64,000 bases of DNA, taken from contig DATJZU010000035.1 of assembly GCA_035498835.1 (NCBI GenBank), forward strand, positions 8,625-72,624, read 5' to 3'. The notes under the pieces were generated by a model. That model was given only the letters and a program-made list of their open reading frames with translations. It ran no database searches and was not told the DNA's origin. Positions 2,140-22,686 of the stretch are shown piece by piece. A program made the translations under genes and the position numbers. Origin of the DNA: Thermoanaerobaculia bacterium (GTDB taxonomy: Bacteria > Acidobacteriota > Thermoanaerobaculia > UBA5066 > Gp7-AA6). Within the stretch, counting starts at the first letter, position 1, and each line of letters starts with the position of its first letter.

Positions 2140-5100
2140 CCGGCCGGCGGCGTCGCGAGCCGGCAGTAGAAGAGCTCGGTGTTCCGGATGCCCTGCTCCG
2201 GGAAGTCGTCCTTCGTGTAGTCGACCGTGAACCCGAGCGTGGCGAGCTTGTCGTCGAGATCCGTTCCATAGGAGCGGTACGTGAGCGTACGCCCTTCCCC
2301 CGAGTTGGCGTCGCCGTGGTGCTCCTTCGCCATCAGATAGCGGTCGGACGACGGGTCCGCCGGGTCCACCACCTCGATGCGCGTCACCGTCAGCCGATCG
2401 CGCAAGTGCGGCACCGTGAAGATGTGAACGCCGCCGGGCCTGAGCACGCGGCGGATCTCGGAGTGCGCGCGCTCGTCGAGGCGCACTTGCTCGAGGACGT
2501 CGCTCGTCACGACGACGTCGAAAGACGCGTCGGGGAAGGTCAGCGCCTCCAGGTTCTGGTTCGTCGCGCCGCCGCCGAGGCGCTTGCCGCGCTTCTGCTT
2601 CGGGTCGAAGCGCGAGGTCGAGACGTCGATCCAGGAGCAGCGCGCGAGAAGGTCCGGGATCGGGTAGGCGTTGCCCTCGCCGTAGAAGGCGACCTGCGTG
2701 TCGTAAACGGCGAGCTTCCGCTTCGGCAACGCGTCGCCGAGTGCCGCGAGGTTGTCGGCCCGGGCGCCCGCGAGCTCCTCGGCCGCGCGGAGGAGACCGC
2801 GCGCGATCGAGCGGTAGCGGGACGTCGTCAGGCAGTGGGCGCAGGTCAGCGACTCGCGGAAGAGGAGCGGATCCGTGTAGTAGAAGCGCGTCCTCTCGCC
2901 GCAGACGTTGCACGTGCCCGAGAGCGAGGACATGCCGCGGAAGCGGGGATCGGTTGGTCCTGTCGCTTCCTTTGGCGGCGCCGGCACAGCCGGCGCAGAT
3001 GCTGCGGCCCGCGGCGCCGCCTTCGGCGCGCGCTCTCTCTTCTCCAGGGCCTCCAGCACCGTGTCCACGCGCGCCGACCATGAGTTCTCGCGGCCGACCT
3101 GACGCACCCGCTCCCGATACGCCGCGTCCTTTCCGCGCTCGCGCGCCGGGTCGAGCGCCGCCGCGAAGTCCTCCGCCGTTTGGACGATCGCGACCTCCGG
3201 GTACGCCATGCACTCGGGCATCGGCGTCGTGATCGTGGCCTTCCCGCCCGCGAAGTACTCGTAGAGCTTGAGCGGCGACGTGGCCTTCGTGATGTCGTTG
3301 ATCTTGAACGGAATCGTCGCGACGTCGAAGAGCCGCAGATACCCCGGCAGCGAGTGATAGTCGCGCGGGCCGAGCCAGAGGACGTTGGGGCATTTCAGGA
3401 CCGGCTGCCCGCGCAGGCTCTGGTCGTACATCGGGCCGATCAGGAGGAAGTTCCAGTCCGGCCGCGCGCGCGCGACCTTCTCGAGAAGCTCGTAATCGAA
3501 CCATTCGGCGAGCGCGCCGTAGTAGCCGGCGATCGGCTTGCCGGACTCGCGGAAGGCGCGCAGCTCCTTGTCCTCGGGCAGCGGCGCCTCGTCGTCGGCG
3601 AACCGCTCGAACTCGACGCCGTTCGGCACGCCGACGGCGTCCGGCCGCACGGCCAGCGCCTGCTCGTGAAGCTTCTTCGCGACGCTCGCCACGACCGTCG
3701 CTTCGGCGAGGCCGCGCGCGTGGTTCTTCTCGAGGAGCGCGCGGTCGTACGGGAACACCTCGAGGTCGTCGATCCAGTCGTACACGGACGCGGAGCCGGC
3801 GGGGTAGGCGTCCACCTTCTGCCAGTTGTAGGTGAACGCCCAGAGCAGCGGCTCCGGAAGCTGCTCGAGGAGGCCCTCCGGTCCGCGGAAGAGGAAGAGG
3901 TTCGGCTGGATCTCCTTGAAGCCGTTCACGTCGTCGTGCGCGTTCGAGCAGTCGAAGATCGCGACCCATCCGCGCCGCGCGAACGTGCGCGCGAGGTGAT
4001 GCGGCCGCTGGAAGAGCGCGATGCCCCAGCCGACCGACGGGAGGAACACGACCGCGCCCTCGCTCGCCGCGATGCGCGCGCGCACCGCGTCGAGCTGCTC
4101 CCGGTAGAAGCCCAGATCGGCGCGCTTCCAGACGTCCACGCCTTCGGCCTTCCAGGCCTCGCCCCACTTCTCCTCGTACTTCTTCCGGTTCTCCTCGAAG
4201 AGCGCGAGGTACTTCTTCTCGCCGAGCAGGCGGAACGACGCCTTCTGCCAGTGGTGCACGAACGCGTCGCGCGCGCAGCGGATCTCCCAGCCCTTCGCGC
4301 GGGCGCGGCGGTTGAAGTCGTCGTCCTCGAACATCCCGGTGCCGAAGCGCTCGTCGAGCGCGCCGACCGATTCGTACACCTCGCGCTTCATCGCGAGGCA
4401 GAACATCGCGAGCATCGGGATCGCGAAGACGTGGCCGTCGTTCTCGCGGACGAAGTCCTCGGCCCAGGCGGGCAGGTCCTCGACGCCTTCGTATCCGACC
4501 TCGACCTTCGCCTCGTTCGAGATGGCATTGGTGACGGGGCCGACGAGGCCGAGCTTCGGCTCCGCGGCGAGGTGACGGACGAGCGCCGAGAGCCAGCCGC
4601 GGGTCACGACGGTGTCGTTGTTGAGGAGGACGAGGTAGTCGCCGGTCGCGAGTACCAGCCCCTGGTTGTTGGCGGCGGCGAAGCCGCGGTTGTCGTCGTT
4701 GAGGACCACGCGCAGGTTCGCGTATCGCGACTCGGCTTCGCGCAGGTACTCGCGCGTGCCGTCCTGCGACGCGTTGTCCACCACGATGACCTCGAAATTC
4801 GGCCACTCGGTGCGGCCGTAGAGGCTCTCGAGGCAGAGCCGGTTGAGGGACAGGTTGTTGTACGTCACGACGACGATCGTGGCCTTCGCGAACGTCGCGG
4901 CCACCGCGGGCGCGAGCGCCTCGAACCGTCGCTCCCAGGAGTTCTCTTTCCCGAAGGCGTGCCGGCGCGCGACGAGCGCCGGGTCGTCTTCCGCGAGCGC
5001 TGCCGCGATCTCGCGCTCGAATTCCTCGGCGCGGTTGGCGAGCCGGACGAGAGGCGCCATCGGCGCGACCTCCGGAATTGGCACCGACACGATCGGCCGG

Positions 5101-7604: not shown

Positions 7605-7779
7605 GTTCGCGCGCAAGTATATGGAGTGGGAGGACGTCTCGTGCCGCGCGGCCGCTTGTCGGTTCCGGCGCGAGCGTCTACAATTCCGGTAGCTCCCTGT
7701 CGAAAATGACGATCGCGCGCGCGATTTTCCGCACGAGCTCGGCCGCCGTGCGGGACCGCGTCCCAAGGAGGTCACGGCC

Positions 7780-8619
7780 ATGAAGGGACCCCGCATTCTT
7801 AGCCTCGCTCTGGCTTCTGCGCTCGGATTCGCCGGCGTCGGCCGCGCTCAGGCACCTCCGGCCCTGCCGAACCTCGAAGCGCCCCCGCCGGTGCACCCCG
7901 AGCCCGACATTCAGAGAGACGTCGCGTCCGGGAAACCGGCCTCGCCGCGCGACTACGGCGTCGGTAACGTCAACATCCTTCAGATTCCGGCCGCGGCCTT
8001 CGTCCCTTTCAACACCACCTGGACCCACGATGCCAACGGCTACTTCTTTCCGGTGACGTCGAGCACGATCGCGCACGCGTGGGCGCCGCTCCAACTCCCG
8101 AGCGGCGCGAGCATCCAGTACGTCGACCTCTACTACGACGACACGGACGCCACGTACGACGCGACGGCGAAGATTCTCGCGGCGACCGGCAGCGGCTTCC
8201 TGAGCTCCGTGGCCCTCAACCCGATCGGGACCATCGCTTCATCCTCGAGCAATTCCGGGCAGGGATACGCCGCGTCCACCAAGTTTGCCTACACCGTCAA
8301 CAATGACGTGCAGTACAACGGCGGCGCGCAGCTCATCGTGCAAGTCACCTTGCCCTCGACGGCCATTGGATTCAAGGCCGTGGACATCTGGTGGACGCGC
8401 CAGATCTCTCCCGCCCCCGCGACGGCGACCTTCGCCGACGTCCCGACGAATCATCCCTACTTCCGCGTCATCGAGGCGCTCGCCGCCTCGGGGATCACGA
8501 GCGGCTGCGGCGGAAACAACTTCTGTCCGAACGGCACCGTGACGCGGCAGGAGGTCGCCAAGTTCATGGTGCGGGCGCTCGGTCTCTACTGGAACGACTA
8601 CAACCTGGGGCCCTTCTAG
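7780..8619 (+). CDS. secreted protein with one C-terminal SLH (S-layer homology) domain
   Basis: AAGGAGG Shine-Dalgarno 7 nt before the ATG. Signal peptide MKGPRILSLALASALGFAGVGRAQA. The C-terminus FADVPTNHPYFRVIEALAASGITSGCGGNNFCPNGTVTRQEVAKFMVRAL matches the SLH consensus (F.DV...H....I..L...GI..G....F.P...VTR.E.A). It is divergent from the giant gene. Confidence 0.8.
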   Translation: MKGPRILSLALASALGFAGVGRAQAPPALPNLEAPPPVHPEPDIQRDVASGKPASPRDYGVGNVNILQIPAAAFVPFNTTWTHDANGYFFPVTSSTIAHAWAPLQLPSGASIQYVDLYYDDTDATYDATAKILAATGSGFLSSVALNPIGTIASSSSNSGQGYAASTKFAYTVNNDVQYNGGAQLIVQVTLPSTAIGFKAVDIWWTRQISPAPATATFADVPTNHPYFRVIEALAASGITSGCGGNNFCPNGTVTRQEVAKFMVRALGLYWNDYNLGPF

Positions 8620-8668: not shown

Positions 8669-11656
8669 GTGAGGGTGAGCTGGTCTCGCGTTCTCTGCGT
8701 GCGCCGGGCCGACCCCTTCCGTCTCTCGGTCGGCGACCAGGCGACCGCCGATTTCGGGCCGGGGCTGCTCCGCTTCCTCAGTCTCGCGGACGCGGAAGGC
8801 CGGCGCCTGGGAGAAGGCTTCGCCGGGGAATGGGTCATCCCGATCGCCGCGGCCGGGACCGCCGCCTTCGCCGCCGTCGGCGAGGAGTTCAATCCGTGGA
8901 CGGCCGCGTCGAACTCGGTCATCTTCCACCGCGCCGTCCGCGACGGCGAGACCGTGGAGGCCACGGTCGAGGTGGCGAGCCTCAAGGGGACGTCCGTGCG
9001 GCTGCCGTACCGGATCGTCGGCGCCGAGTCGCGCGATCCCGTGGCGGAGGGCGAGTTCGTCTTCGTCTGCGTCGGCCCGAGTGGGCCGAGGCGCTTCGAT
9101 CCGCGGCTGGTGCCCCGGAGCGCGCCGGAAGCGGCCGGAGCCGTTGCTGGCCGCCCCCCGCTTCCCGTTGCGGTCGGCCGGCCGACGTGGCGTGCGCGCG
9201 CCGCGGGCGCCGTTCTGCCGCGGTCGCTCACGCGCGGCCTGCGCGTCGCGTACTGGCACGGCCTGGCCCAGCGGGGCCGCCGGACCTCGCCCGCCGAATT
9301 CCTGTCGGGCCTCCGAAGCGTGTGGCGGTCCGACGCGGGGCGCGGGACCGAAGCTCCGTTGTCCTTTCGGGATCGCCTTCTCGACGTCTTTCTGCCGCCG
9401 TCCGCCGCGGACGCGTTCCGCGCCGCGTGGCGTGCCCCGAGAGAGACCGCCGAAGCCGGGCCGATCCGGTTCGCGGTGCGGCCCGTCGCACTGGCGAAAG
9501 GCCAGAGCGTCGACCTCCCGATCGAGATCTCGAATCCGGCCGGCGTCTCGATCGACGCCGAGATCGAGATCGAAACGCCGTACGGTTTCGGACTGGCCGC
9601 CGACTGGACGAAGAGCGAAAGGGTGCGGCTTTCGCCGGGCCAGACGGCGGGCGCGTCCGTGAGGGTCACGGCGCTCCGCCCGGACGAGGTCAACCTCGGT
9701 CGTCCATGGCCTCTCGTGTGCCGCCTCCGGGCGGGAGCGGCGGTGCTCGGCTCCGATCGGATCGCGCTCGCCGTCGCGGACCCGGACCCCGGGTCGATCT
9801 TCTACGTCCTCACCGAGGACTGCGAGACGTTCGACGGCGGCGAGACGACGGGCGCGTACGGTGCGGCGGGCGTCCTCGGAAATCGCAACGGCTTCATGGA
9901 TCCGGAGGAGTACCGCGTCCAGATGATCGCGAAGCCCGACGCGCTGAACGCCATCGCGGAGAAGCACGGGGCGCGCTGGACGCACTTCTGGACGGCGCCG
10001 CAGCGCTTCGCGGCGGCGTGGGCGGCGAGCCGATCGAAGACGGGGGCGTGGGACGCGGTGGTCCGCCAGCTCGACGAGTCCGTGCGGCGGGGCTCGCGCG
10101 CGCACGAGTACGCGCCCCACATCCATTTCGACTACGAGCCCGACTCGAGCCTTCCGCCGCAGCCCCGTCTCGTGTACGACGCGAAGACGGACGGAATCCT
10201 TCCGGCCGAGTACTACGATCCGGTATCCAATCCCGACCACCGGTACCACGGCTGGGATGGCGCCCGGAAGGGGATCGCCTACGTGCGCCGCGAGGGAGAT
10301 CTCTCCGACGTCGATTCGAAGAAGGGCTCCCTGCGCAAGTCCGTGCGCTATCTGGCGGATCTGTCTTTCGCCGGGCGCCTCTCCCGATGCGCCCGAACGG
10401 GGGCGGCCGACTTCGGAGCGGCGCCGGCGGATCTCGGTGCGAGCGCGCGCGCGGCCGCGGCCAACGGCCTCGTGGCCAACTCGGATGCCGGGGTCTATGC
10501 GGCGAAGAGCCCGCTGCCGCGGGGCCGGCAGATCTACTTCTGCCGACCGGACGACCTGGACGCGGAGATCGAGGAGCTCTCCGCCGCCGCGCTCGTCGAG
10601 CTGCGCGCGCCCGACTTTCAGCTCGAGCAGGGATCGCTCGAGGAGCTCAACGCGTGGTTCGACCGCCGATACCTCGAATCCCGGGGCCCCGGCGTGCGGG
10701 CGATCATCGCGATGACCCACGCGATGTTCGTCAAAGGCGCGCCGGATCCGTTTCGGGACACGGCGGGAGGCGATTTCGACAAGATCGACCATCACCTGGA
10801 GCACGTGGCCCGCGCACACCCCGACGTCCGGTTCGCGACGGCATCGGAAGCGGCGCTCGAGTTCCTCGACTACTACACGCCGGTGCCGCGCGCCGTGGCG
10901 CTCGAGGCGCGAGCCCGATCCGCCGACGGAACCGTATGGATCCACCCCGTCCGGATCCTGGGCAAGGGGATTCCGCTTCCCGCGCGGCTGACGGTGCAGG
11001 CACCGCCGCATCTGGACGCGCACGCGATCCGTTCCCTCGCGATCCTCGACGCCGGAGAGCCGATGCCGGATTGCTCCTGGACGGCGAGCCCGGGAGAGCT
11101 CGCCTCGGCGGAGTTCACGGCGGTGCGGCGGGAAGGGTACGCCCTGCGCGTCGAGACATCGCGCTCGATCGAGCACCGGCTCTGCGGCGCCGCGGTCCCG
11201 GCCGCGCCCGGCCCTCTCTTCGAGGAGGCCGGCGACGGGAGCGACGCCCGGGCCGATCTCCTTCGGCTCGATCCGCCGGAGCTCCTCCGCGGAGAGGTCC
11301 GAGGCATCGACGCCGTGAAGCCGGGCGACCGCTGGGAGTGGCGTTACCCGGGCGACCTCTTTCACCTGCTCGTCCATCCCGTCGCGGGCAACGCGCATCC
11401 CCTCGGACGGCGTCTCCATCCGTACGGGCGGTATTCCGAGGGCATCGCGATCGACGCCGCCCGGCGGGTGCTCGGGCCCGGCATCCGGCCGGCGGGATTC
11501 GAGCTCCAGTGGGTTCGGCCCGTGCGGGGCGGCGCGGATTTTCGCGTCGCGTGCCTGCTCGAGGCGATGACAGCCGAAGCGGCCGTCATGCAAACTTCGG
11601 TCGAAGAGTCGGGAGTCGAGGTCGCGCGGATCCGTCTGTCACTGGCGCGGTCTTAG
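8669..11656 (+). CDS. multidomain protein: N-terminal hotdog-fold thioesterase-like domain, central beta-sandwich-like segment, C-terminal NodB/polysaccharide-deacetylase-like or glycoside-hydrolase-like domain (995 aa)
   Basis: GTG start, continuous ORF. The N-terminal ~145 aa (GEWVIPIAAAGTAAF...VEATVEVASLKGTSVRLPYRIVG...GEFVFVCVG) resemble 4HBT-type thioesterases. Downstream motifs FYVLTEDCETFDGG and HEYAPHIHFD are reminiscent of the NodB/CE4 TFDDG and His motifs. Family assignment of the large domain is uncertain. Confidence 0.6.
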   Translation: MRVSWSRVLCVRRADPFRLSVGDQATADFGPGLLRFLSLADAEGRRLGEGFAGEWVIPIAAAGTAAFAAVGEEFNPWTAASNSVIFHRAVRDGETVEATVEVASLKGTSVRLPYRIVGAESRDPVAEGEFVFVCVGPSGPRRFDPRLVPRSAPEAAGAVAGRPPLPVAVGRPTWRARAAGAVLPRSLTRGLRVAYWHGLAQRGRRTSPAEFLSGLRSVWRSDAGRGTEAPLSFRDRLLDVFLPPSAADAFRAAWRAPRETAEAGPIRFAVRPVALAKGQSVDLPIEISNPAGVSIDAEIEIETPYGFGLAADWTKSERVRLSPGQTAGASVRVTALRPDEVNLGRPWPLVCRLRAGAAVLGSDRIALAVADPDPGSIFYVLTEDCETFDGGETTGAYGAAGVLGNRNGFMDPEEYRVQMIAKPDALNAIAEKHGARWTHFWTAPQRFAAAWAASRSKTGAWDAVVRQLDESVRRGSRAHEYAPHIHFDYEPDSSLPPQPRLVYDAKTDGILPAEYYDPVSNPDHRYHGWDGARKGIAYVRREGDLSDVDSKKGSLRKSVRYLADLSFAGRLSRCARTGAADFGAAPADLGASARAAAANGLVANSDAGVYAAKSPLPRGRQIYFCRPDDLDAEIEELSAAALVELRAPDFQLEQGSLEELNAWFDRRYLESRGPGVRAIIAMTHAMFVKGAPDPFRDTAGGDFDKIDHHLEHVARAHPDVRFATASEAALEFLDYYTPVPRAVALEARARSADGTVWIHPVRILGKGIPLPARLTVQAPPHLDAHAIRSLAILDAGEPMPDCSWTASPGELASAEFTAVRREGYALRVETSRSIEHRLCGAAVPAAPGPLFEEAGDGSDARADLLRLDPPELLRGEVRGIDAVKPGDRWEWRYPGDLFHLLVHPVAGNAHPLGRRLHPYGRYSEGIAIDAARRVLGPGIRPAGFELQWVRPVRGGADFRVACLLEAMTAEAAVMQTSVEESGVEVARIRLSLARS

Positions 11657-11678: not shown

Positions 11679-12719
11679 GTGGCGGCCGAGTCGATCGTCG
11701 TCGTCTGTCCCGACACGAACGTCCGCCTTTGGGTCTCCCGCGCCTCCGAAGCGCCGACGGGAGGGGGCAAGACCTCGATCCTCCAGCTCGCGGCCGCCTG
11801 GGTGAGGGCCGGCCACTCCGTCACGATCGCGGCATCGGCGGCTCGCCCCGAGGACCGCGACGGCATCGCCGTCCGCGAGATCGAGGCGGCGGCGGGAGAC
11901 TACGACGTCGCGATCTTCGTGACGGGCTCGCTCGGCCATTTCCGCGCGCCGGGTGTCGACGCGATCCGCGCGGACCGCCGGCTGTTCTGGCAGAACGGCC
12001 CGGGAAGGGCAGAGCTTCCGCCCGGCCGGGTGGACTGGTACGTCGCGCCGGCGAAGTTTCTCGCCCGGCGCGCCGTGGACGAGTGGGGGCATCCTCCCGA
12101 GAAGGTCGTCGTCATTCCCGGCGAAGCGGTGCGCCGCCGGCGCGCGGTCTCCGAGGCCGCGTCGCGCGATCCGCTCGCGGCGGTCTACGCGAGCCACCCG
12201 TTCAAAGGGCTCCGGGAAGCGGTCGAGGTGCTCGGGCATCTGCGCGCGGAGTTTCCCGACGTGCGGCTCGACGTGTACGGCTCCGAGCGATTGTGGGCCG
12301 ACGGCGCCGCGCCGTCCGCGGAGCGCGTTCTGCCGGAGTGGGTGCGCCGCGCCGGAGAGACGCCGCAGAGCGAAGTCGAGCGCCGCATGGCGGACTACGG
12401 ATTGATGCTGTACCTGACCGAATGGGTGGACGGGTTCTCGCTTTCCACCGCCGAGGCGCTCGCGGCGGGAGTCGTCGTCATCGCCACGGCGCACGGAGCG
12501 AACGCCGAGTTCCTGAGGCACGGCTGGAACGGCTTTCTCGTGGGCTCGGACGGCGGCCGCCCAGACCTGCTCGAGGCGCAGAGTCTCGCGCGCGCCTATC
12601 TGCGCGATCCGGCGGCCTTTGCCGGCGTCCGCGCCAACGCCATGGCGTCCGTGCCCACCTGGGACGAGCAGGCCGACGAGTGGCGCCGTCTGTGGCGGTC
12701 GCCCCTCAGGGGCGCCTAA
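11679..12719 (+). CDS. GT4 family glycosyltransferase (GT-B)
   Basis: GTG start 23 nt after the previous stop. Motifs GGGKTSILQLA and EGFSLSTAEALAAGVVVIATAHGANAEFL (EX7E signature). Confidence 0.8.
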   Translation: MAAESIVVVCPDTNVRLWVSRASEAPTGGGKTSILQLAAAWVRAGHSVTIAASAARPEDRDGIAVREIEAAAGDYDVAIFVTGSLGHFRAPGVDAIRADRRLFWQNGPGRAELPPGRVDWYVAPAKFLARRAVDEWGHPPEKVVVIPGEAVRRRRAVSEAASRDPLAAVYASHPFKGLREAVEVLGHLRAEFPDVRLDVYGSERLWADGAAPSAERVLPEWVRRAGETPQSEVERRMADYGLMLYLTEWVDGFSLSTAEALAAGVVVIATAHGANAEFLRHGWNGFLVGSDGGRPDLLEAQSLARAYLRDPAAFAGVRANAMASVPTWDEQADEWRRLWRSPLRGA

Positions 12720-12792
12720 AGGCCGATTTCGGGGGGATCCGGCGGGTTACAATTTTCTCCTCGGGCCGGAACGCCCAAACAAAGGACAGATC

Positions 12793-14826
12793 TTGAGGAT
12801 TCGGGGAAGAGGACTCTTTCGCGCGGCCCGCGCGTGCCTCGCCGTCCTGGCGCTCGGCGCCGGCGCGGCCGCCGCGCGCGCGCAGCCCGCCCCGGATGTC
12901 ACGCTCCAGCCGTACATCGGGTCCCTGACGTACCCCCTGGGGTTCGTCAACGCGGGCGACGGCAGCGGCCGCAACTTCGTCGTCACACAGTTCGGAAAGA
13001 TCTTCGTGTACCAGGGAAACACCGGCCTCGGCACGTTCCTGGACGTGAGCGGGCTCCTCCCTTGCGGCGATCCGAGTGCGGGGGGCTGCGGCGAGCAGGG
13101 GCTGCTCGGCCTCGCGTTCCACCCGAACTACGCGTCCAACGGGCTCTTCTTCATCGATTACACGAACGTGGACGGCGACGAGGTGATCGCGCGCTACAAG
13201 GTCTCGTCCGACCCGAACGTCGCCGACCCGGCGAGCGCGACGATCCTCCTCGTCGTGCCCGACCCGTTTCCCAACCACAACGGCGGCCAGCTCCAGTTCG
13301 GGCCCGACGGATACCTCTACATCGCGATGGGCGACGGCGGTTCCGGCGGCGACCCGGGCAACCGCGCACAGAACCTCGGCGTGCTGCTCGGCAAGATCTT
13401 GCGGATCGACGTGGACGGATCGGGAACGGTGCCCTGCGGCCAGTCCACGCCGATGCCCTACGCCATTCCGGACGACAACCCGTTCGTCGGCGCCGCGGGC
13501 GCCTGCGAAGAGGTCTGGGCCTACGGCATGCGGAATCCCTGGCGCTTCAGCTTCGACCGCGAGAACGGCGATCTCTTCATCGGGGACGTCGGGCAAGACC
13601 TCTACGAGGAGGTCGACGACCAGCCGGCGGGCACGCCCGGCGGCCGCAACTACGGCTGGCGCCGCATGGAAGGCTTCCACTGCTACGACCCCGCGGCCAA
13701 CTGCGACGACGGCACGCTGACGCACCCGATCCTCGAGCACGACCACTCCCTCGGCTGCGCGGTGACCGGCGGCTACGTCTATCGCGGCGCGGCCTACCCG
13801 CAGTTGAACGGCGTCTACGTCTACGGCGACTACTGCAGCGGGACGATCTGGGGCGCGGTGCGCGACGCGGCGGGCGTCTGGTCGGAGCGCGCGATCGGGA
13901 CGTCGCAGCTCATCAGCTCCTTCGGCGAGGATGAAGCGGGGGAGCTCTACGTCGTCGAGCACAGCGGTTCGGTGAAGAAAGTCACCAGCGCAACCGCATT
14001 CCTCAAGCCGTCGGTCTCCGCGCTCGCGCCGGGCGCGGCCGTCAAGGGCGACCCGGGAATCCTCCTCACGGTGGACGGTTCGGGCTTCACGCCTTCGTCG
14101 ATCGTGCGGTGGAATGGATCCGGCCGGGCGACGACCTACGTGTCCCGCACGCGTCTCGAGGCGGCGATCCCGGCCGGCGACCTGGCCGCGCCGGGGACGG
14201 CTTCGGTGGCGGTCGCGAACCCGGCGCCGGGCGGCGGCGTCTCGGCGGGAATGACGTTTTCGATCACAAACCGCTTCCTCGACGTGCCGCTCGCGTATCC
14301 GCTGCGGCGTCCGATCGAAGGGATCGCGGCGGCGGGGATCACGACGGGATGCGGCGACCGCATCTTCTGCCCGGAGTCCCCGGTGACGCGCGACCAGATG
14401 GCCGTGCTTCTCCTCCGCGGCGAGCACGGCTCGTCCTATGCGCCGCCAGGGGCGACCGGCACGATCTTCTCCGACGTCTCCAAGACGGCGTTCGCCGCGG
14501 CGTTCATCGAGCGGCTCTCCGCGGAAGGGATCACGACCGGCTGCGGCATGGGGAACTACTGTCCCGCCGTGCCGGTGACCCGCGCGCCGATGGCGAAGTT
14601 CCTGCTGCGCGCGCACGATGGCCCGACCTATCAGCCGCCGCCCGCGCAGGGAGTCTTCACGGACGTGCCGGCGTCGGCGCCGTTCGCCGCGTGGATCGAA
14701 GAGCTGTCCGCCCGCGGCATCACGACGGGCTGCGGCGGCGGCAAGTTCTGTCCCGACATGACCGTCACGCGCGCCCAGATGGCCGCGTTTCTCGCCCGGA
14801 CGTTTTCCATTTCGTTGCCGCCTTAG
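12793..14826 (+). CDS. secreted PQQ-dependent sugar dehydrogenase-like beta-propeller (GSDH/YliI family) + IPT/TIG-like domain + three C-terminal SLH repeats
   Basis: TTG start with an AAGGA Shine-Dalgarno 6 nt upstream. Signal peptide LRIRGRGLFRAARACLAVLALGAGAAAARA. GSDH hallmarks FHPNY...DGYLYIAMGDGG...YGMRNPWRFSFD...GRNYGWRRMEG. Three repeats of the form ...EGIAAAGITTGCGDRIFCPESPVTRDQMAVLLLRG. Confidence 0.8.
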   Translation: MRIRGRGLFRAARACLAVLALGAGAAAARAQPAPDVTLQPYIGSLTYPLGFVNAGDGSGRNFVVTQFGKIFVYQGNTGLGTFLDVSGLLPCGDPSAGGCGEQGLLGLAFHPNYASNGLFFIDYTNVDGDEVIARYKVSSDPNVADPASATILLVVPDPFPNHNGGQLQFGPDGYLYIAMGDGGSGGDPGNRAQNLGVLLGKILRIDVDGSGTVPCGQSTPMPYAIPDDNPFVGAAGACEEVWAYGMRNPWRFSFDRENGDLFIGDVGQDLYEEVDDQPAGTPGGRNYGWRRMEGFHCYDPAANCDDGTLTHPILEHDHSLGCAVTGGYVYRGAAYPQLNGVYVYGDYCSGTIWGAVRDAAGVWSERAIGTSQLISSFGEDEAGELYVVEHSGSVKKVTSATAFLKPSVSALAPGAAVKGDPGILLTVDGSGFTPSSIVRWNGSGRATTYVSRTRLEAAIPAGDLAAPGTASVAVANPAPGGGVSAGMTFSITNRFLDVPLAYPLRRPIEGIAAAGITTGCGDRIFCPESPVTRDQMAVLLLRGEHGSSYAPPGATGTIFSDVSKTAFAAAFIERLSAEGITTGCGMGNYCPAVPVTRAPMAKFLLRAHDGPTYQPPPAQGVFTDVPASAPFAAWIEELSARGITTGCGGGKFCPDMTVTRAQMAAFLARTFSISLPP

Positions 14827-14861
14827 GGGAAGTGAGGGAGGAGGTCCTCGAGAGGCCCAGA

Positions 14862-16937
14862 ATGACATCCGCACCGCCCGCCCCGCGGCGGGGAACAACG
14901 AGAGCCGGAGCCCGGCTCTTCTTGATCCTCGTCGCCGCTTCTTTGAGCGCGCTCCCCGCGCCCGCGGCCACGCTCGGCGGACCCGTGCCGCCGCCGCTGC
15001 CGCTCTTCCCGCAATCCAACTGGTGGAACCTGAACATCTCCGCCGCTCCGCTCGACCCGGGCTCGGCGTCGTACATCACGTTCCTCGGCGCCGGCGGCGT
15101 GACCGGCGCGCATCCGGATTTCGGCGGCAACAACGGGCCGGTCGCGATCTACGGCTTCCCGTATTGCGTCGTCCCGGGAAGCCAGGCGAAGAAGGCGGTC
15201 ACGTTCCAGTACTGGGACGAGAGCGACGGCGTCGACTACGGCACGCACGCCGGCCTGCCGTTCTATCCGATCCCCGACGAGGCGATCACGCAGAACCACT
15301 GGATCGAGGGCGGCCAGCCCGGCAACGCCACCGTCAGCGGCGATCGCCACATGCTCATCCTCGACCAGGACAACAAGATGCTTTACGAGCTCTTCGCGCT
15401 CAAGTGGGACACGACGAACTCGCGGTGGAAGGCGGGCTCGGGTGCCGCGTTCGACCTCAAGAAGAACGGCCGCCGTCCCGACACGTGGACGTCCGCCGAT
15501 GCCGCGGGGCTCGCGATCCTGCCCGGACTGGTGCGATATGACGAGGTGTACGGTCCCGGCGAGATCGGGCACGCCTTCCGCGTGACGGTGCGCGACTCGG
15601 ACGGCTACGTCTATCCCGCGTCGCACGACGCCGGCTCGCAGGCGGGCGCTCTGCCGATGGGCGCGCGGCTCCGTCTCAAAGCGTCGAAGGACATCTCGGG
15701 CTACGACCCCGCCGTGCAGAAGATCTTCCGCGCGATGAAGAAGTACGGCTTGATCGTGGCCGACAACGGGACCGACCTCTACGTCAGCGGGAGCTGGGAC
15801 ACGCGGTGGGACAACGACATCCTGAATCCCGCCTTCGGCGATCTCGCGCCGTCGGACTTCGAGGTCGTCACGCTGGGATACATGCCCCAGGTCGCCGCGG
15901 GCCTCGCCGTCGACGCGCACTCCGGGACGGGAACGACGTCCGACGCCAACGGCGTCCTCGAGCCCGGCGAGACCGTGCTGGTCGAGCCGTCGTGGACCTA
16001 CCAGGGGAATTCGTCGAAGTCTCTGACCGGCGCTGCCTCGGCGCTCGCGGGACCGGCCGGCGCTTCCTATACGCTCGCCGACGCGGCGGCGTCCTACGGG
16101 ACGGTCCCGGCCGTCGCAACGGGAGACGGCGCGACGGTCTCCTGCACGGGCGCCGGCGGCAATTGCTATCGCATCGCGGTCTCGGCGCCGGCGGTCCGGC
16201 CGGCGGCGCACTGGGACGCGACCGTCACCGAGACGCTGTCGACGAGCGGCGTCTGGAAGTGGACGCTCCACGTGGGCGATAGCTTCGCCGACGTGCCGCG
16301 CACGAACCCCTTCTACGCGAAGATCGAGACGCTCTTCCACCACGGTGTCACGTCGGGCTGCGCCGCGGGCCTCTACTGTCCCGACGACGCGGTCGTGCGC
16401 TATCAGATGGCGATCTTCCTCGCGAACACGCTCGCCCGCGGCGGTTCGAACGTGCCGGCCTCCGGCTCGTGGAACGGGCAGGCCTACAACTGCAAGGCGG
16501 GAGGCGTCTCGATCTTTCTCGACATCGCGCCGACGGACGCCTTCTGCAAGCACGCGCACTACCTGGCGGTCCAGAACGTGACGCTCGGATGCTCCGGGAA
16601 CTTCTTCTGCCCGAGCGCCGCCGTGTCGCGTCTCGAGATGGCGGGATTCGTCGCGCGGGAGATGGTCGCGCCGGGCGGCGGCGGCGCGGTCCCGGCGGCC
16701 TACGGCCCCGATCCCGTCACCGGACGTTCCTACAGCTGCAGCACGACCGCCCCGAACATCCATTTCACCGACGTGCCCTCGACCGACCCGTACTGCAAGC
16801 TCGCCCACTACCTCTGGGCGCGCGGCGTGATCGCCGGCTGCACGCCGACCGACTACTGCGCGGGCTCCCCCGTCACGCGCGGCGAGATGTCGAAGTTTCT
16901 TTCGAACGCGGCGGGGCTGACTCTGTACGGTTCGTAG
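14862..16937 (+). CDS. secreted protein of unknown N-terminal family with three C-terminal SLH repeats
   Basis: ATG preceded by GGGAGGAGG. Signal peptide MTSAPPAPRRGTTRAGARLFLILVAASLSALPAPAA. C-terminal repeats FADVPRTNPFYAKIETLFHHGVTSGCAAGLYCPDDAVVRYQMAIFL / FLDIAPTDAFCKHAHYLAVQNVTLGCSGNFFCPSAAVSRLEMAGFV / FTDVPSTDPYCKLAHYLWARGVIAGCTPTDYCAGSPVTRGEMSKFL. Confidence 0.8.
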   Translation: MTSAPPAPRRGTTRAGARLFLILVAASLSALPAPAATLGGPVPPPLPLFPQSNWWNLNISAAPLDPGSASYITFLGAGGVTGAHPDFGGNNGPVAIYGFPYCVVPGSQAKKAVTFQYWDESDGVDYGTHAGLPFYPIPDEAITQNHWIEGGQPGNATVSGDRHMLILDQDNKMLYELFALKWDTTNSRWKAGSGAAFDLKKNGRRPDTWTSADAAGLAILPGLVRYDEVYGPGEIGHAFRVTVRDSDGYVYPASHDAGSQAGALPMGARLRLKASKDISGYDPAVQKIFRAMKKYGLIVADNGTDLYVSGSWDTRWDNDILNPAFGDLAPSDFEVVTLGYMPQVAAGLAVDAHSGTGTTSDANGVLEPGETVLVEPSWTYQGNSSKSLTGAASALAGPAGASYTLADAAASYGTVPAVATGDGATVSCTGAGGNCYRIAVSAPAVRPAAHWDATVTETLSTSGVWKWTLHVGDSFADVPRTNPFYAKIETLFHHGVTSGCAAGLYCPDDAVVRYQMAIFLANTLARGGSNVPASGSWNGQAYNCKAGGVSIFLDIAPTDAFCKHAHYLAVQNVTLGCSGNFFCPSAAVSRLEMAGFVAREMVAPGGGGAVPAAYGPDPVTGRSYSCSTTAPNIHFTDVPSTDPYCKLAHYLWARGVIAGCTPTDYCAGSPVTRGEMSKFLSNAAGLTLYGS

Positions 16938-16974: not shown

Positions 16975-17799
16975 CTACCACTTCTCCCAGACCGAGAGGT
17001 CCTGATAGCGGTTGAGGCCGTTCTCGCGGAAGTGCCGCAGGCCGAAGCAGCGGCCCCAGGTCGCGACGAGGTACTCGCGCGAGTGGAACGCCGAATCGTC
17101 GTTGAATCGGCCGCCGCCCGCGGCAAAGACGAAACCGCGCCGGGCGAGGGCCTGGCGGTCATCCTCCGAAAGGTCGGGCCGGCTCCAGGAGAGCCCGGGA
17201 GCGTGGGTCGAGGCGATCAGGAGGCCGCCCGGGCGCATCACGCGATGGAGCTCGGCGAGCCAGGCCAGCTGGCGCTCCTCGGACAGGTGGGTGAAGACCG
17301 ACCCGGCGTAGACGACGTCCATGTGCCCCGGCGGCAGTGCGGTCGGCGGATCGGCCGCGACGCGCGCGTATCGGCCTCGGACGTGCGACGCCGTCCATTG
17401 GAGCGCCTCCTCGTCCACGTCGATTCCCCAGAGCTCGCCGATCGGAACGGTCCGTTCCAGATGGCGCGCGACGCGGCCGCAGCCGCAGCCGAAGTCGAGC
17501 CAGCGCGCGTAGCGGCTCGCCGGTTGCCGGCTCGCTTCGAAGACGTCGCGGATGTTTTCCGACGCTTCCCGGCCGGCCGAGAGAAAGGTCGCGCGCGAGC
17601 TCGTTCCCGAGACGCGGTAGCGGAGCCGGGGCGGCGGCAACGGGTCTTCGTGGAATCGGTCGAGGATGTCCGGAACGAGGTCGCGAAGACGCACCGGTGT
17701 TTCGCGAAGCAGGAGCCGGCCGCGCCGGCGCCAGTCGAGCGGCACACGCCGCCGTGCGATCGCCCGGATTCGGCCGCTATCGGCCGCGTTCGTGCTCAT
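16975..17799 (-). CDS. class I SAM-dependent methyltransferase
   Basis: Motifs LDFGCGCGRVARHL, VVYAGSVFTHL and VMRPGGLL. The start ATG at 17799 overlaps the wzt stop (ATGA), so it is the last gene of the wecB-GT-wzm-wzt operon. Confidence 0.75.
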   Translation of the reverse strand: MSTNAADSGRIRAIARRRVPLDWRRRGRLLLRETPVRLRDLVPDILDRFHEDPLPPPRLRYRVSGTSSRATFLSAGREASENIRDVFEASRQPASRYARWLDFGCGCGRVARHLERTVPIGELWGIDVDEEALQWTASHVRGRYARVAADPPTALPPGHMDVVYAGSVFTHLSEERQLAWLAELHRVMRPGGLLIASTHAPGLSWSRPDLSEDDRQALARRGFVFAAGGGRFNDDSAFHSREYLVATWGRCFGLRHFRENGLNRYQDLSVWEKW

Positions 17800-18584
17800 G
17801 AGGACGGCGGTCGAGCGGCGGGGCTCGGCAGCGGCGGAGCGTCTCCGCCTCCCACGGACCACTCGTGGTACGCCTCGGCCACTTCAGCGGCGGGGCCCTG
17901 GCTCACGACGAGGCCCTCGTGGATCCAGACCGCGCGGTTGCAGATCTCCTGGATCAGGCGCGTCGAGTGGGAGACGAAGACGATCGTCTTGCCGCTCCGG
18001 CGGAACTCGTTCATCCGCGCCTGGCACTTCAGCTGGAAGCGCTCGTCGCCGACGGCGAGCGCCTCGTCGATGAGGAGGACGTCGGGGTCGACGTCGGTCG
18101 CGACGGAGAAGGCGAGACGCGCGGCCATGCCCGTCGAGAACGTTCGCAGCGGCGCGTCCACGAACTCCTCGAGCTCCGCGAACGCGACGATTCGGTCCAG
18201 GCGGCGCTTCATCTCCGCCCGCGAGAACCCGAGGAGCGCCCCCTGCAGCATGACGTTCTCGCGTCCCGTCAGCTCGCCGTGGAGGCCGAGACCGAGCTCG
18301 AGGATCGGCGCGACGCGGCCGGCGACGATGACCCGGCCTCCCGTGGGCGGGATGATGCGCCCGATCACGCGCAGCGCCGTGCTCTTGCCGGCGCCGTTGC
18401 GGCCCACGATGCCGAGCGTCTCTCCGGTTCCGACCTCGAACGACACGCCGCGGAGAGCTTCGAACTGATCGAAGAAGATCCGCCGCTTCAGCTTGCGGAT
18501 CGCGTATTCCTTGATCGAGCGGATGCGCTCGCGCGGGACGAGGTACCCGACGTGAACGCCTTCGAGGCGGACCGCGACGCTCAT
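17796..18584 (-). CDS. wzt: polysaccharide ABC exporter ATP-binding protein (Wzt/TagH/KpsT-like), short form without C-terminal carbohydrate-binding domain
   Basis: Walker A GRNGAGKST, signature FSTGMAARL, Walker B LLIDEALAVGD. Only 262 aa. Confidence 0.9.
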   Translation of the reverse strand: MSVAVRLEGVHVGYLVPRERIRSIKEYAIRKLKRRIFFDQFEALRGVSFEVGTGETLGIVGRNGAGKSTALRVIGRIIPPTGGRVIVAGRVAPILELGLGLHGELTGRENVMLQGALLGFSRAEMKRRLDRIVAFAELEEFVDAPLRTFSTGMAARLAFSVATDVDPDVLLIDEALAVGDERFQLKCQARMNEFRRSGKTIVFVSHSTRLIQEICNRAVWIHEGLVVSQGPAAEVAEAYHEWSVGGGDAPPLPSPAARPPSS

Positions 18585-18599
18585 CCGGCGTTCAACCCG

Positions 18600-19445
18600 T
18601 CAGCCCATCAGCGCGAAGGAATCCCGCCGGCGACAGAAGAAGAGCCAGCCGGCCAGGAAGCAGACCACGGCGACCGCGAGCGACGGGAGGAAGACGTCGA
18701 GCGGCGGCAGCTCGCCGTCGTAGATCGGTTTCCGGAAGGTCTGCACGAGGTAGTACATCGGGTTCAACCAGATCGGGACGCGGTACCGAACGGGCACGAT
18801 CGAGATGTGGTACACGACCGGAGTCAGGTAGAACCAGACCTGCACGAACACGGTGTACATCTCGCGCACGTCGGTGAAGCGCGAGGCGAGCGTGAAGAGG
18901 AAGAAGCCGATTCCCGACGCGAACAGCGCGCCCATCAGGATCGAGACGGGCAGGAAGATCCACGTGGCGTGGAACGGGAACTTCGTCACCGCGAGGATCC
19001 CGAGCAGCGGGACGAGCGACAGCACGAGATTCACGAGCGCGCCGCCGATGGCCGCCGCGACGAAGACCGACCGCGGCACGAACGTCCGCTTCGCGATGGC
19101 GTTGGCGTCCTGTGTTTGGAACGCCGCCGCCGACGTGCTCTGAGAGAAGAAGTTCCAGAACAGGAATCCCGTCATGAAGTAGACGGGATAGTTCGCGATG
19201 GACGTCTTCAGGAGCGCCGAGAAGACGAGCGTCAACGTCGCCATGTTGAGGAGCGGTCCGAGCATGGTCCACGTCAGTCCGAGGATCGATCGTTTGTAGC
19301 GGACCTTGATGTCGCGCACGACGAGCTCGTGCACGAGGCCGCGGTACGCCCAGAGGGCGCGCGCCTCCTCGAGGGCGGCCGGCCCTCCCCGCGCGGAGTC
19401 GTAGATGGGCAACGCGGCCCGGACCGGCGGGGCGGCGGCGCTCAC
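18600..19445 (-). CDS. wzm: ABC-2 type polysaccharide exporter permease (Wzm/TagG/KpsM-like)
   Basis: Six-TM ABC-2 permease with the N-terminal LVVRDIKVRYKRSILGLTWTML motif. Start taken as the GTG at 19445 (281 aa). The track ORF runs on to 20306 through low-complexity sequence, so the true start could differ by a few codons. Confidence 0.8.
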   Translation of the reverse strand: MSAAAPPVRAALPIYDSARGGPAALEEARALWAYRGLVHELVVRDIKVRYKRSILGLTWTMLGPLLNMATLTLVFSALLKTSIANYPVYFMTGFLFWNFFSQSTSAAAFQTQDANAIAKRTFVPRSVFVAAAIGGALVNLVLSLVPLLGILAVTKFPFHATWIFLPVSILMGALFASGIGFFLFTLASRFTDVREMYTVFVQVWFYLTPVVYHISIVPVRYRVPIWLNPMYYLVQTFRKPIYDGELPPLDVFLPSLAVAVVCFLAGWLFFCRRRDSFALMG

Positions 19446-19480: not shown

Positions 19481-21529
19481 CTATCGTCGCGCGCCGGGGC
19501 CGAGCTCCGGCTCCGCGGGCGCCGATCCCCACTTGCGCGCGTACCGCTCGCGATTCTCGCGGTAGATCCGGAGGTATTCCTCGTCGGGCAGGCGGCGGAA
19601 GCTGCCGCGGCCCCAGTGATGGACGAAGCTGTCGCGGGCGACCGCGAGCCGGAAGCCCTTCTCCCGCGCGCGCCGGCACCAGTCGTCGTCCTCGAACATC
19701 CCGACCGCGAACCGCTCGTCGAGCGGCCCGACCTGCTCGAAGACGCGGCGCCGGGTGAGCACGCAGAAGAAGGCGAGCATCGGGATCGGCTCGGATCGCC
19801 CAGAGTTGCCGCGGGTGAATTCCCGCGCCCAGGGCTCCAGGTCCTCGGGATCGCGATAGCCGACCGGCACTTTCGCCTCGTTGGCGATCTCGTTCGTCGA
19901 GGGCCCGACGAGCCCGAGCGACGGGTCCCGATCGAGGTGGCGGACGAGCGCCGAGAGCCAGCCGCGCGTGACGACCGTGTCGTTGTTCAAGAAGCAGAGC
20001 AGGTCGCCCCGGGCCGCGGCCGCCCCGGCGTTCGCCGCGGGCGCGAAGCCGCGGTTGTCGGGGAACGCGAGGAGCCGGAAGCCGCCGCCGCGCCGCGACG
20101 CCTCGGCCTCGAGGAGCTCGCGCGTGCCGTCCGTCGATCCGTTGTCGACGAAGACGAGCTCGACGCGGGGCCAGTCCGTGCGGCGGTCGAGCGAGGCGAG
20201 GCAGAGCTCCGTCAGGGGCCGGCCGCCGTGGGTGACGACGACGACCGAGACGAGCGGGTAGAGGGCGCCGACGGCGCCGTCGAGCGCCTCGGCGCGATGG
20301 TCCCACGTGTTGCGGGCGGCGAAGGCCCGGCGTCGGGCGGCGTTTTCCGGCGCGCGCGCCGCCTCGTCGGCGATGGCCGCGGCGAACTCCTGCATGGTCG
20401 CGGCCAGGCGGACGACTCCCGCGTCGGCGTGCGGCCGGAGCGCCTCGAGCGGCGTCGCGACGACCGGGCGGCCGGCGGCGGCCGCCTCGTAGAGCTTCAC
20501 GGGATCGACGGCGTGCGTGAGCGGCGACGGCCGGAACGGGATGATCTCCACGTCGAATCGGGACCGGAGCGCCGGGAGCTCCGCGTACGGGCGCTCGCCG
20601 TGAAAGGCGACGTTCGGCAGGCCCTTGGCGAGGTCCTCCCGCCCGCCCTCGCGCCCGCCGACGATCTCGAAGCGCCAGTCGGGCCGCGTCCGCGCGAGCC
20701 CCTCGAAGAGCTCCGCGTCGAACCAGTCGTCCACCGCGCCGACGTAGCCGACGGTGAGGGGCCTGCCGCGTCTCGCGGGCTCCGACGCCGGCGCTCCGAC
20801 CAGCGCGGCGTCCGCGGCGTTGGGAAGGAGGAGCGTGTTCGGGTTCTCCCGCGCGAGGCGCGCGCGCAGGACCTCGGAGGTCGCCGTGACGAGGTCGGCG
20901 CGCCGGACGAGCTCCGGCTCGGCCTGTCCGAGCAATCCGGGACGGTTCGCGCCGAAGGCCTCGTGCTCGTCGAGGCAGTCGTACACGACCTTCCAGCCGA
21001 AGCGGTCGGCCAGAAGCATCGCGAGCGGCGTCCAGAAGGGCGTCTGCACGACGATCGCGGTCTCGAAGAGACCGTAGGCGTCACGCGCCGCCGAAATCGA
21101 GGCGAACGCCTCTTCGAGCGGCCGCCCTTCGAGCCGCCGGTCGGCCGGATCCTCGCGGCGGACTCCGTCGATCGGGAGGAGCAGGACGCCGGGAGCCGCG
21201 CCCGTCGGCGTCTCGGGCTCGCCGCGTCCCCGGAGCGCCCCGTAGAAGACGCGTCGCCCGCGGCGCGCGAGCGCCTCGGCGAGTTGCTGCGGCCGCTGGC
21301 GGCGATAGGACCATGCGATGACCGGCAGGAAGAGGACGTCGGGGCGGCCGGGCAGCGCTTCGTTCGGATCGAAGGCGAAACGCGGGATGTCGACATCGGG
21401 CTTGTGGATGCCGAGGAGATGCTCGGGGGCGACTCGCCGGCGAAGCGCCCGGCGCCAGGACAGCGGCAGGAGGCGGCGGCCGAAGGCGTAGAGACGCCCG
21501 CGGAAACCCTTCTCCCACTCCGGTCTCAC
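19481..21529 (-). CDS. bifunctional glycosyltransferase: N-terminal GT4-like domain + C-terminal GT2 domain (682 aa)
   Basis: GTG start overlapping the wecB stop (GTGA). The N-domain [25 protein letters not shown] parallels IIDWDFRFQRPQQL of the giant protein. The C-domain has VVVVTHGG...[11 protein letters not shown]...[14 protein letters not shown]...FEDDDW (GT2). Confidence 0.85.
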
Positions 21530-22686
21530 GGCGCGCGGCGGGCCGCTCCGGACGCCGCGGCCGGGACCGGCGCGAAGCTCTTGTACGGGCGGCCGGCGAG
21601 GACGTCAGCGATCCGGTCGCTGGCGCGTCCGTCGCCGTACGGGTTGCCGCCCTCCGCCATGCGGCGGCGCGCGGCGGGATCCGAGAGCAGCCGCGACGCC
21701 TCGGCGACGATCCGATCTTCGTCGGTGCCCACGAGCCGCGCGAGCCCCGCCTCGACGCCTTCGGGCCGCTCCGTCTTCTCCCGCAGGACGAGCACGGGCT
21801 TTCCGAAGGTCGGCGCCTCCTCCTGGATGCCGCCGGAGTCCGTCAGCGCGAAGCGGCAGCGGCGCAGCAGACGGACGAGCCCGCGGTAGTCGAGCGGCTC
21901 GAGCAGCTCGACGTTGGGCAGGCCTTCGTTCGCGCGCACGGCGGCGAGCACGCTGGGGTTGGGGTGGACGACGTGCAGGAAACGCGTCTGCGGGAACGCC
22001 CGCGCCAGGCGCGCGATCGCGCGTACGATCCGGGCGAGGGGCTCGCCGAAGCTTTCGCGGCGGTGCGCGGTGATGAGGACGGTATCGGTCTCCGGCTCCG
22101 CGCCCTCGCGCGCGGCGATCTCGAGAAGCGCGTCCACGACCGTGTTCCCCGTCCGATGGATCCGATCGGCCGGCACGCCCTCGGCCTCGAGGGCCGCGGC
22201 GGCGCGCCGCGTGGGCGCGAAATAGACGTCGGCAACGAGGTCGACGACGCGGCGATTCATCTCCTCCGGGAAGGGGTGCTGGAAATCCCCGGTGCGCAAC
22301 CCGGCCTCGACGTGCCCGACGCGCACGCGCCGGTGGAACGCGGCGATCGCGGCGCACATGGCGGTCGTCGTATCGCCCTGTACGATCAGCCAGTCGGGGG
22401 AGCGCTCCGCGAGGAGCGGATCGAGCGCCGCGAAGACCCGGGAGGCCACCTCGTTGGGCGACTGGCCCGGCCGCATCAGGTCGAGATCGACGTCGGGCGC
22501 GAGGTCGAACACCTCCAGGACCTGATCGAGCATCTCCCGGTGCTGTGCCGTCGCGCAGAGTGTCGCTTCGAAGCGGTCCGGCTCGCGGCGCAGCCGCCGG
22601 ACGAGCGGCGCGAGCTTGATGGCTTCGGGCCGCGTGCCGGCCACGAGAAGGACGCGCGCCGGGGCGGACGAGGCGGCCGGAGTCAC
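21526..22686 (-). CDS. wecB: UDP-N-acetylglucosamine 2-epimerase (non-hydrolysing)
   Basis: [40 protein letters not shown] are diagnostic WecB/MnaA motifs. GTG start. Confidence 0.9.

Follow-up and report, generated by a model that had tools for sequence, protein, structure and literature searches.

A 64,000-nucleotide stretch of DNA from a Thermoanaerobaculia bacterium (contig DATJZU010000035.1, positions 8,625 to 72,624; hereafter the window) encodes two related glycan synthases. One is a free-standing bifunctional glycosyltransferase (GT) of 682 amino acids, here called F, and the other is a giant multidomain synthase, here called G, which carries a CsaB-type pyruvyl transferase in addition to its GT modules. 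The origin of the window from Thermoanaerobaculia (Acidobacteriota) is reflected in the names of the homologues and in a genome scan. Judged by sequence comparison, F and G are ancient paralogues of one widespread family of modular glycan synthases and not a recent copy of each other. It is reasonably likely that they act as partner synthases of a pyruvylated, ATP-binding cassette (ABC)-transporter-dependent wall glycan which anchors SLH proteins.

In its organisation, G matches the coiled-coil terminator-polymerases, e.g., WbbB of Klebsiella O12, ORF6 of O7 and WbdD/WbdA of E. coli O9a, in which a modifying enzyme at one end is likewise set apart from several GT modules by a long helix, a predicted one in the case of G (PMC11231755). 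There the coiled-coil proteins carry the terminators, and the polymerase modules are variably split among single- and multimodule proteins (PMC11231755). Likewise, these systems have a further stand-alone GT in the locus, a position taken here by F, together with Wzm/Wzt. They differ in that the modifying enzyme of G is a CsaB pyruvyl transferase, a methyltransferase is located at the other end and the helix is much shorter. Moreover, the Wzt encoded here has no carbohydrate-binding module, and the GT modules are of the TuaH-like GT-B and GT2 types. A sequence relationship of G to the solved members of these systems was not detected.

WbbZ of Klebsiella pneumoniae O1b pyruvylates a glycan of an ABC-transporter-dependent pathway, which is the role proposed for the CsaB domain of G. 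WbbZ differs in being a separate protein without a ruler, and the likeness concerns function. Its terminal pyruvate caps the non-reducing end and truncates polymerisation in vitro, and chain-length control based on pyruvate has so far been named as an unvalidated candidate only, in Burkholderia and Pseudomonas (PMC10629545).

[quoted passage not shown] In these Firmicutes CsaB is a protein of its own, and the characterised Paenibacillus enzyme uses a lipid-linked disaccharide, whereas in the window CsaB is fused to a synthase with three GT domains, export is assigned to Wzm/Wzt and the host is acidobacterial.

For the GT-B and GT2 domains of F, the best named sequence relatives are the teichuronic acid transferases TuaH and TuaG of Bacillus subtilis. 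Unlike the fused F, these are separate proteins of a Wzx/Wzy-type pathway. The E. coli K4 chondroitin polymerase and the Pasteurella heparosan synthase resemble F in having two alternating GT sites in one polypeptide for a disaccharide repeat. The GT2 modules of such dual-module glycosaminoglycan synthases gave the best PDB sequence matches (E 1e-5 to 1e-12, GT2 part only), but their partner module is not a TuaH-like GT-B domain.

The G+C content of the window is about 70%, which gives rise to many spurious open reading frames (ORFs), and the real frames were picked by their third-position GC. The parts of F are as follows:

19481..21529, minus strand: F, free-standing bifunctional glycosyltransferase of 682 amino acids (ORF and translation; Pfam; orthologues with 75-94% identity; dN/dS 0.18-0.26)
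21359..21529, minus strand: F residues 1-57, conserved helices rich in arginine and aromatic residues (AlphaFold2 helices at residues 9-20 and 23-32)
20270..21358, minus strand: F residues 58-420, TuaH-like GT-B (GT4-type) domain with a QRPQQL motif (partial NCBIfam match to TuaH; Foldseek; invariant R76, Q78-L83, K345 and E348)
19520..20269, minus strand: F residues 421-670, GT2 (GT-A) domain with a FEDDD motif (PF00535, 98.5 bits; Foldseek match to ppGalNAc-T)

In the AlphaFold model of F (pLDDT, the predicted local confidence, 88.6) a complete two-Rossmann GT-B fold is followed by a GT-A fold. The GT-B part matches the Pfam family Glyco_trans_1_4 with 45 bits (cut-off 27), and its best PDB matches in Foldseek are MshA (3c4q, TM-target 0.70), SPS (6kih, 0.72) and GlgM. 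From fold and family, a retaining mechanism can be assumed for this domain. The GT2 domain exceeds the PF00535 cut-off of 23.3 bits by far, keeps the Asp-rich EDDD motif, shows the GT-A fold in the model and resembles ppGalNAc-transferases. In the N-terminal region, residues P22, R27, R30 and R31 are nearly invariant, and residues 1-57 may associate with the membrane. In NCBIfam, the GT-B part has TuaH as its nearest named relative, and the GT2 part gives a weak match to TuaG. The cut-off of 550 of the TuaH equivalog (NF047676) was reached neither by F (77 bits) nor by G (174 bits), and the TuaG equivalog match is far under its cut-off (29 vs 400). The best PDB sequence match of F (E 4e-5) is confined to the GT2 part. 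When F and G were compared with the PDB sequences, only generic GT2 and methyltransferase matches were obtained, and a two-domain template was not found.

The giant synthase consists of six recognisable parts downstream of its start:

2136..7796, minus strand: G, giant multidomain synthase, ORF of 1886 amino acids (translation, Pfam, orthologues)
6597..7601, minus strand: CsaB-type polysaccharide pyruvyl transferase domain (PF04230, 122.8 bits, cut-off 25.3; AlphaFold2 fold)
6084..6371, minus strand: G residues ~476-571, a 75-residue helix (putative coiled-coil spacer) and, next to it, a helix rich in Trp, Tyr and Arg (putative membrane helix) (AlphaFold2; weak Pfam Filament match)
4917..5978, minus strand: first TuaH-like GT-B domain (paralogue of the F GT-B domain, 41-43% identity)
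4152..4901, minus strand: GT2 domain (paralogue of the F GT2 domain, 56-57% identity)
3042..4121, minus strand: second TuaH-like GT-B domain (counterpart in the F-type homologues of ~1040 amino acids, missing from the F of the window)
2139..2876, minus strand: C-terminal S-adenosylmethionine (SAM)-dependent methyltransferase domain (Pfam Methyltransf_11, E 1e-10)

The true start of G is probably a GTG near 7604 and not the ATG at 7796, because the orthologues of G begin with MTSRRILLAGYYG; this would give a protein of about 1822 amino acids. With a start at about 7604, the divergent intergenic region up to the SLH gene (7780) measures roughly 175 bp. The pyruvyl transferase domain narrowly misses the cut-off of the CsaB family TIGR03609 (206 bits, cut-off 213.1). 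The AlphaFold model of G residues 60-640 comprises the CsaB fold, a continuous 75-residue helix (417-491), the Trp/Tyr/Arg-rich helix (493-512) and a disordered Pro/Ala linker, the spacer helix having a pLDDT of 65-73 in this monomer model and a weak Filament match. The second GT-B domain of G is 27% identical to that of F.

The initial annotation had described an ORF of 682 amino acids with the same order of a GT4-like and a GT2 domain as in the giant protein, sharing many residues with positions ~611-1215 of the latter. Every motif quoted there was found, and both Pfam and the AlphaFold model agree with the order. In BLASTP, residues 58-670 of F matched residues 607-1214 of G with 293/619 identities (47%, E 4e-164), the identity being 43% in the GT-B and 57% in the GT2 domain. 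The Pfam order Glyco_trans_1_4 followed by Glycos_transf_2 is common to both proteins, and the motifs IIDWDFRFQRPQQL, VVVTYNN and VDNASQDGT are present in the translation of G. The pairwise similarity is thus far beyond family level, as the best match to unrelated GT2/GT4 enzymes was the above-mentioned PDB match in the GT2 part. F and G also share an identical run of 18 residues, 93% identical in nucleotides. Gene conversion was considered as its source and rejected, as the run is conserved family-wide and codon identity is at background.

The age of this paralogy was addressed with neighbour-joining (NJ) distance trees (200-300 bootstraps) and a neighbour ranking of 197 cassettes. In the ranking, F is the 26th neighbour of G (distance 0.87) and G is the 105th neighbour of F. 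The G cassette is followed first by its own orthologues, then by other CsaB fusions, by unfused proteins with the order T-GT2-T, in which T denotes the TuaH-like GT-B domain (0.51), and by a Burkholderiales protein (0.71). In the NJ trees F lies inside a clade of 98-100% support which excludes G, further nodes with 86-97% support are found between the two, and homologues from Proteobacteria, Chloroflexota, Planctomycetota and Nitrospirota are placed on the F side. On the other side, tblastn relatives outside the F clade (Blastocatellia, Heliomicrobium, Binatia, delta- and gammaproteobacteria) match the domains of G better than those of F, many being 55-67% identical to G domains vs 41-56% for F. 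At identical residues of F and G the same codon is used in a fraction of 0.63, compared to 0.60 expected from codon usage, no outlier region appeared in F-G codon identity by window, and the synonymous sites are saturated. The family comprises 4242 proteins at E<1e-30 in many phyla, and more than 150 clusters (50% identity) contain the whole cassette, mostly within proteins of 1000-2600 amino acids. Contrary to what had been suggested, the fusion cannot be dated from the paralogy, given the unresolved backbone of the trees and the saturation of the synonymous sites.

Three loci of Heliomicrobium metagenome-assembled genomes (Firmicutes; L027, L031 and L035 among the homologous loci, which are given by L numbers) encode T-GT2-T proteins that are 56-67% identical to the G domains, above the identity of F to them. 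A methyltransferase match is also present in L031 and L035. The Heliomicrobium loci suggest that the T-GT2-T module spread horizontally between phyla.

The unit shared by F and G is larger than the GT4-GT2 core originally proposed as duplicated. Both proteins do share that core, but most F-type homologues have a length of about 1040 amino acids and an additional C-terminal domain, which is TuaH-like. One of them (P0012) is colinear with G over GT-B, GT2 and second GT-B (44% identity over 985 residues). Based on this alignment, the F of the window would have lost its third domain. The group of 680 amino acids including F is nested among three-domain forms as sister to L008 and L010 (98% support, NJ), and loss of the third domain in the F sub-lineage is the simplest reading. 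The short distance of 35 nt from the end of F to wzm also speaks for such a loss. The ancestral core is accordingly reconstructed as a TuaH-like GT-B, a GT2 and a second TuaH-like GT-B domain, often with a methyltransferase, and F is best described as a reduced derivative of the three-GT core carried by G and not as a minimal ancestral cassette. An assignment of the third domain of the longer homologues as a canonical GT4 was rejected, as it is TuaH-like and colinear with the second GT-B domain of G. Furthermore, the stand-alone GT4 at 11679-12719 was considered as a substitute for the domain lost from F, and no detectable similarity was found.

As to G, an origin of the giant through fusion of a cassette with capping enzymes held in a general sense only, whereas the assumption that its cassette was a copy of the free-standing one did not, since the F clade of 98-100% support excludes G. 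Because other lineages encode CsaB, MnaA, the TuaH-like GT and T-GT2-T, with or without the methyltransferase, separately, G is a fusion product, and its GT block stems not from F but from the lineage of the G-type proteins. Such an unfused arrangement is present in L004, in which separate adjacent genes code for CsaB (599 amino acids), MnaA, a TuaH-like GT (549 amino acids) and T-GT2-T (1146 amino acids), with an SLH protein close by. In L051, L062 and L076 the tblastn matches follow an L004-like order with the methyltransferase last, as read from the matches alone; no CsaB match was obtained in L076. Many Acidobacteriota, Bryobacteraceae among them, have CsaB-T-GT2 fusions of 1150-1300 amino acids.

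F is the second gene in a compact operon on the minus strand. The other genes of this operon are:

21526..22686, minus strand: mnaA, UDP-GlcNAc 2-epimerase (PF02350, E 4.8e-107; stop codon overlapping the GTG start of F in GTGA)
18600..19445, minus strand: wzm, ABC-2 permease of 281 amino acids (NCBIfam galactan Wzm/KpsM matches; gene call in L001; GTG start)
17796..18584, minus strand: wzt, ABC ATPase of 262 amino acids (Pfam ABC_tran; NCBIfam Wzt/TagH)
16975..17862, minus strand: SAM-dependent methyltransferase, last in the operon, start codon uncertain (Pfam Methyltransf_11/25)

F starts with the GTG that overlaps the mnaA stop codon, and 35 nt separate its own stop codon from the GTG of wzm. 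The order mnaA-F-wzm-wzt is kept in at least about 30 loci, and in Thermoanaerobaculia F is always part of it. Among the matches listed, mnaA is conserved upstream of every F-type gene. The methyltransferase at the operon end is conserved in L006 and absent from L002 and L021. In several F-type operons with mnaA and wzm/wzt the GT is reduced to the first TuaH-like GT-B domain and has no GT2 (L042, L044, L061, L064-L066, L068, L070, L073, L077 and L084). These single-GT-B enzymes are 61-64% identical to F residues 1-420, and such operons point to a stepwise loss of domains in the F-type lineage.

Both genes are conserved in relatives of the window. The nearest species representative among the matches listed is the metagenome-assembled genome MFD00822.bin.2.174, in which F is 94% identical, and orthologues of G have 1814-1864 amino acids and 74-92% identity. 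A 4.28-Mb contig of a relative carries F and G in synteny with about 75% identity each, in the order mnaA-F-wzm-wzt, SLH genes, GT4, a 983-amino-acid protein, more SLH genes and G. With dN/dS values of 0.18-0.26 for F and 0.23 for G, both are maintained by purifying selection; the value of G against L025 was left out on account of a wrong frame. In the window, the region between F and G codes for three proteins with SLH domains, for a canonical GT4 and for a conserved protein of 995 amino acids, and a membrane protein follows G:

14823..16937, plus strand: protein of 704 amino acids with three C-terminal SLH-like repeats (weak Pfam SLH match; repeats 16251-16919; faint SLH match in the L002 orthologue)
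12619..14826, plus strand: GSDH-fold protein with three C-terminal SLH repeats (Pfam; repeats 14266-14811)
11679..12719, plus strand: stand-alone canonical GT4 (Pfam; syntenic in L002, L006, L021 and L025)
8669..11656, plus strand: protein of 995 amino acids (marginal 4HBT match only; 58-91% identity in L002, L003 and L025)
7780..8619, plus strand: SLH-domain protein, divergent from G (PF00395, E 9e-10)
463..2139, minus strand: polytopic membrane protein of 558 amino acids, start overlapping the G stop codon in ATGA (faint PMT/GT-C resemblance)

An orthologue of the membrane protein adjoins the giant gene in L003 and is flagged there, weakly, as PMT_2; the membrane protein is possibly a transferase or ligase of the periplasmic face. 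The locus L003 (3810-9583) contains many more SLH proteins than the three of the window.

For the partnership of F and G, the following pathway is proposed. Both proteins would belong to an ABC-transporter-dependent pathway and would use, on the cytoplasmic side, an undecaprenyl-linked acceptor. F, tied to the supply of UDP-ManNAc and to the exporter, would alternate between its two active sites, one retaining and one inverting, and thereby extend a backbone of the disaccharide type. G would add a different segment and install a pyruvate ketal and a methyl group, its helical spacer keeping CsaB at a distance from the GT modules, an arrangement known from the coiled-coil terminator-polymerases of O-antigen assembly in Klebsiella and E. 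coli. The product would be a pyruvylated wall glycan bound by the SLH proteins of the locus. That the two synthases make different parts of one polymer, as had been offered as one of two possibilities at the outset, is plausible from the conserved linkage and the recurrent pairing of F-type genes with CsaB-bearing genes. Unfused T-GT2 genes make up the sister clade of F (97% support), and in three loci they are located between wzt and a CsaB-T-GT2 gene:

L040, 8284-15574: T-GT2 gene directly upstream of a CsaB-T-GT2 fusion, near wzt
L048, 7719-16817: the same arrangement
L063, 10040-18371: the same arrangement

Free-standing F-type synthases are thus repeatedly paired with CsaB-bearing ones, and the CsaB partners differ. 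These three loci represent a second, independent case of a free-standing synthase accompanied by a CsaB-bearing one.

The strongest alternative is that two independent polymers are made. F, MnaA and Wzm/Wzt would then form one glycan, O-antigen-like or teichuronic-acid-like, and G a separate pyruvylated SLH ligand exported by another route, their proximity reflecting a general envelope-glycan island. G-type genes of other phyla fit such independence in having their own wzt nearby and in some cases their own mnaA (L033, L047, L050, L057, L058 and L060). The F-type operons with the GT-B domain only indicate functional flexibility, and the translational coupling of a polytopic, GT-C-like membrane protein to G also fits this alternative. 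However, the locus in the window shows a single ABC exporter and a single mnaA, which both go with F, and the known substrate of CsaB is ManNAc (PMC6030368, PMC11464976). Moreover, F-type genes are repeatedly paired with CsaB-bearing synthases in separate lineages, and F, the SLH genes and G are syntenic. Two separate polymers are for these reasons regarded as unlikely, albeit as a reading that has to be taken seriously.

A further alternative restricts F to making an adaptor or primer of a few residues on the lipid-linked initiator and leaves G as the sole polymerase and modifier, which is one way of assigning the adaptor and repeat-unit roles mentioned in the initial annotation. G with its three GT modules and modifying enzymes resembles the single-polypeptide system of Klebsiella O12, and the tolerance of F-type proteins to the loss of one or two GT modules fits an accessory role more easily. 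Yet the exporter genes and mnaA are invariably coupled to F and not to G. In addition, the alternation of a retaining with an inverting site in one dual-module enzyme is characteristic of polymerases, e.g., WbdA, K4CP and PmHS2. An adaptor-only role of F is thus improbable.

Finally, a recent duplication of the GT4-GT2 cassette within this lineage, with one copy then fused with capping enzymes to give G, is very improbable despite the shared domain order, the 47% identity over 619 residues with the 18-residue run and a distance of only about 12 kb between F and G, since nodes of 86-100% support separate the two, proteobacterial, Chloroflexota and Planctomycetota homologues are nearer to F than G is, G has nearer relatives than F among unfused T-GT2-T proteins and homologues from other phyla, codon identity is at the level that codon usage predicts without a region of gene conversion, the identical run is a family-wide feature and both paralogues are already present in the relative at about 75% identity.

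Several points weigh against F and G as ancient paralogues that serve one pyruvylated glycan. The two genes were seen together directly in two genomes only, with partial synteny in L025. The NJ trees are distance-based, and their deep backbone does not support an exact placement of the F lineage relative to the G lineage. Sugar specificities, the division of labour and the action of F and G on the same polymer are all inferred. The spacer helix of G is short (~11 nm), of moderate confidence (pLDDT 65-73) and modelled as a monomer. The Wzt of 262 amino acids consists of the nucleotide-binding domain only, without a C-terminal carbohydrate-binding module detectable by Pfam or NCBIfam, and in the classical terminator systems it is this module that couples recognition of the cap to export. 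In Paenibacillus, CsaB pyruvylates every repeat, on a lipid-linked disaccharide, so that a terminal cap is not required here (PMC6030368). A more far-reaching version of the partnership is tentative and rather doubtful. In it, an F-type and a CsaB-bearing synthase would depend on each other throughout Acidobacteriota as the two proteins of one machine; the exporter-coupled F-type enzyme would make the backbone, and CsaB, tethered through a helical ruler to the GT modules of its own protein, would measure the chain and cap it with the pyruvylated epitope bound by SLH proteins.

In this genome of the Acidobacteriota (Gracilicutes), a dense cluster of genes for SLH proteins adjoins the CsaB-bearing gene. 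In a survey, CsaB and SLH were practically absent from Gracilicutes including the acidobacterial group (bioRxiv 10.1101/2021.05.31.446380). Literature searches returned nothing relevant on SLH or CsaB in Thermoanaerobaculia or Acidobacteria, or on TuaH-GT2 polymerases. Elsewhere in the window, two adjacent Peptidase_M1 proteins of ~830 amino acids (33113-35581 and 35586-38102, minus strand) are apparent tandem paralogues.

Modular glycosyltransferases are known to be routinely reshuffled in envelope-glycan loci, and the paralogy of F and G is hence ordinary. More notable is the CsaB-helix-synthase fusion together with an SLH/CsaB locus in an acidobacterium. F itself belongs to a known kind of enzyme, the multi-module glycan synthases in ABC-transporter pathways, as an uncharacterised member. 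With it, a large uncharacterised module family of GT-B, GT2 and GT-B domains, often with a methyltransferase, is defined, which is present in thousands of multidomain proteins from different phyla. The giant represents a CsaB pyruvyl transferase fused to that module, and the unfused versions found elsewhere are natural split constructs for biochemistry. The locus points to a complete CsaB/MnaA/SLH wall-anchoring system in Acidobacteriota. If the partnership of F and G and the ruler-tethered pyruvyl cap are true, pyruvate would join the validated chain terminators, and length control in the style of O antigens would be linked to SLH anchoring. SLH/CsaB anchoring would then also exist in a Gracilicutes phylum where it was thought to be practically absent, by means of a ruler-controlled pathway for a pyruvate-terminated wall glycan.

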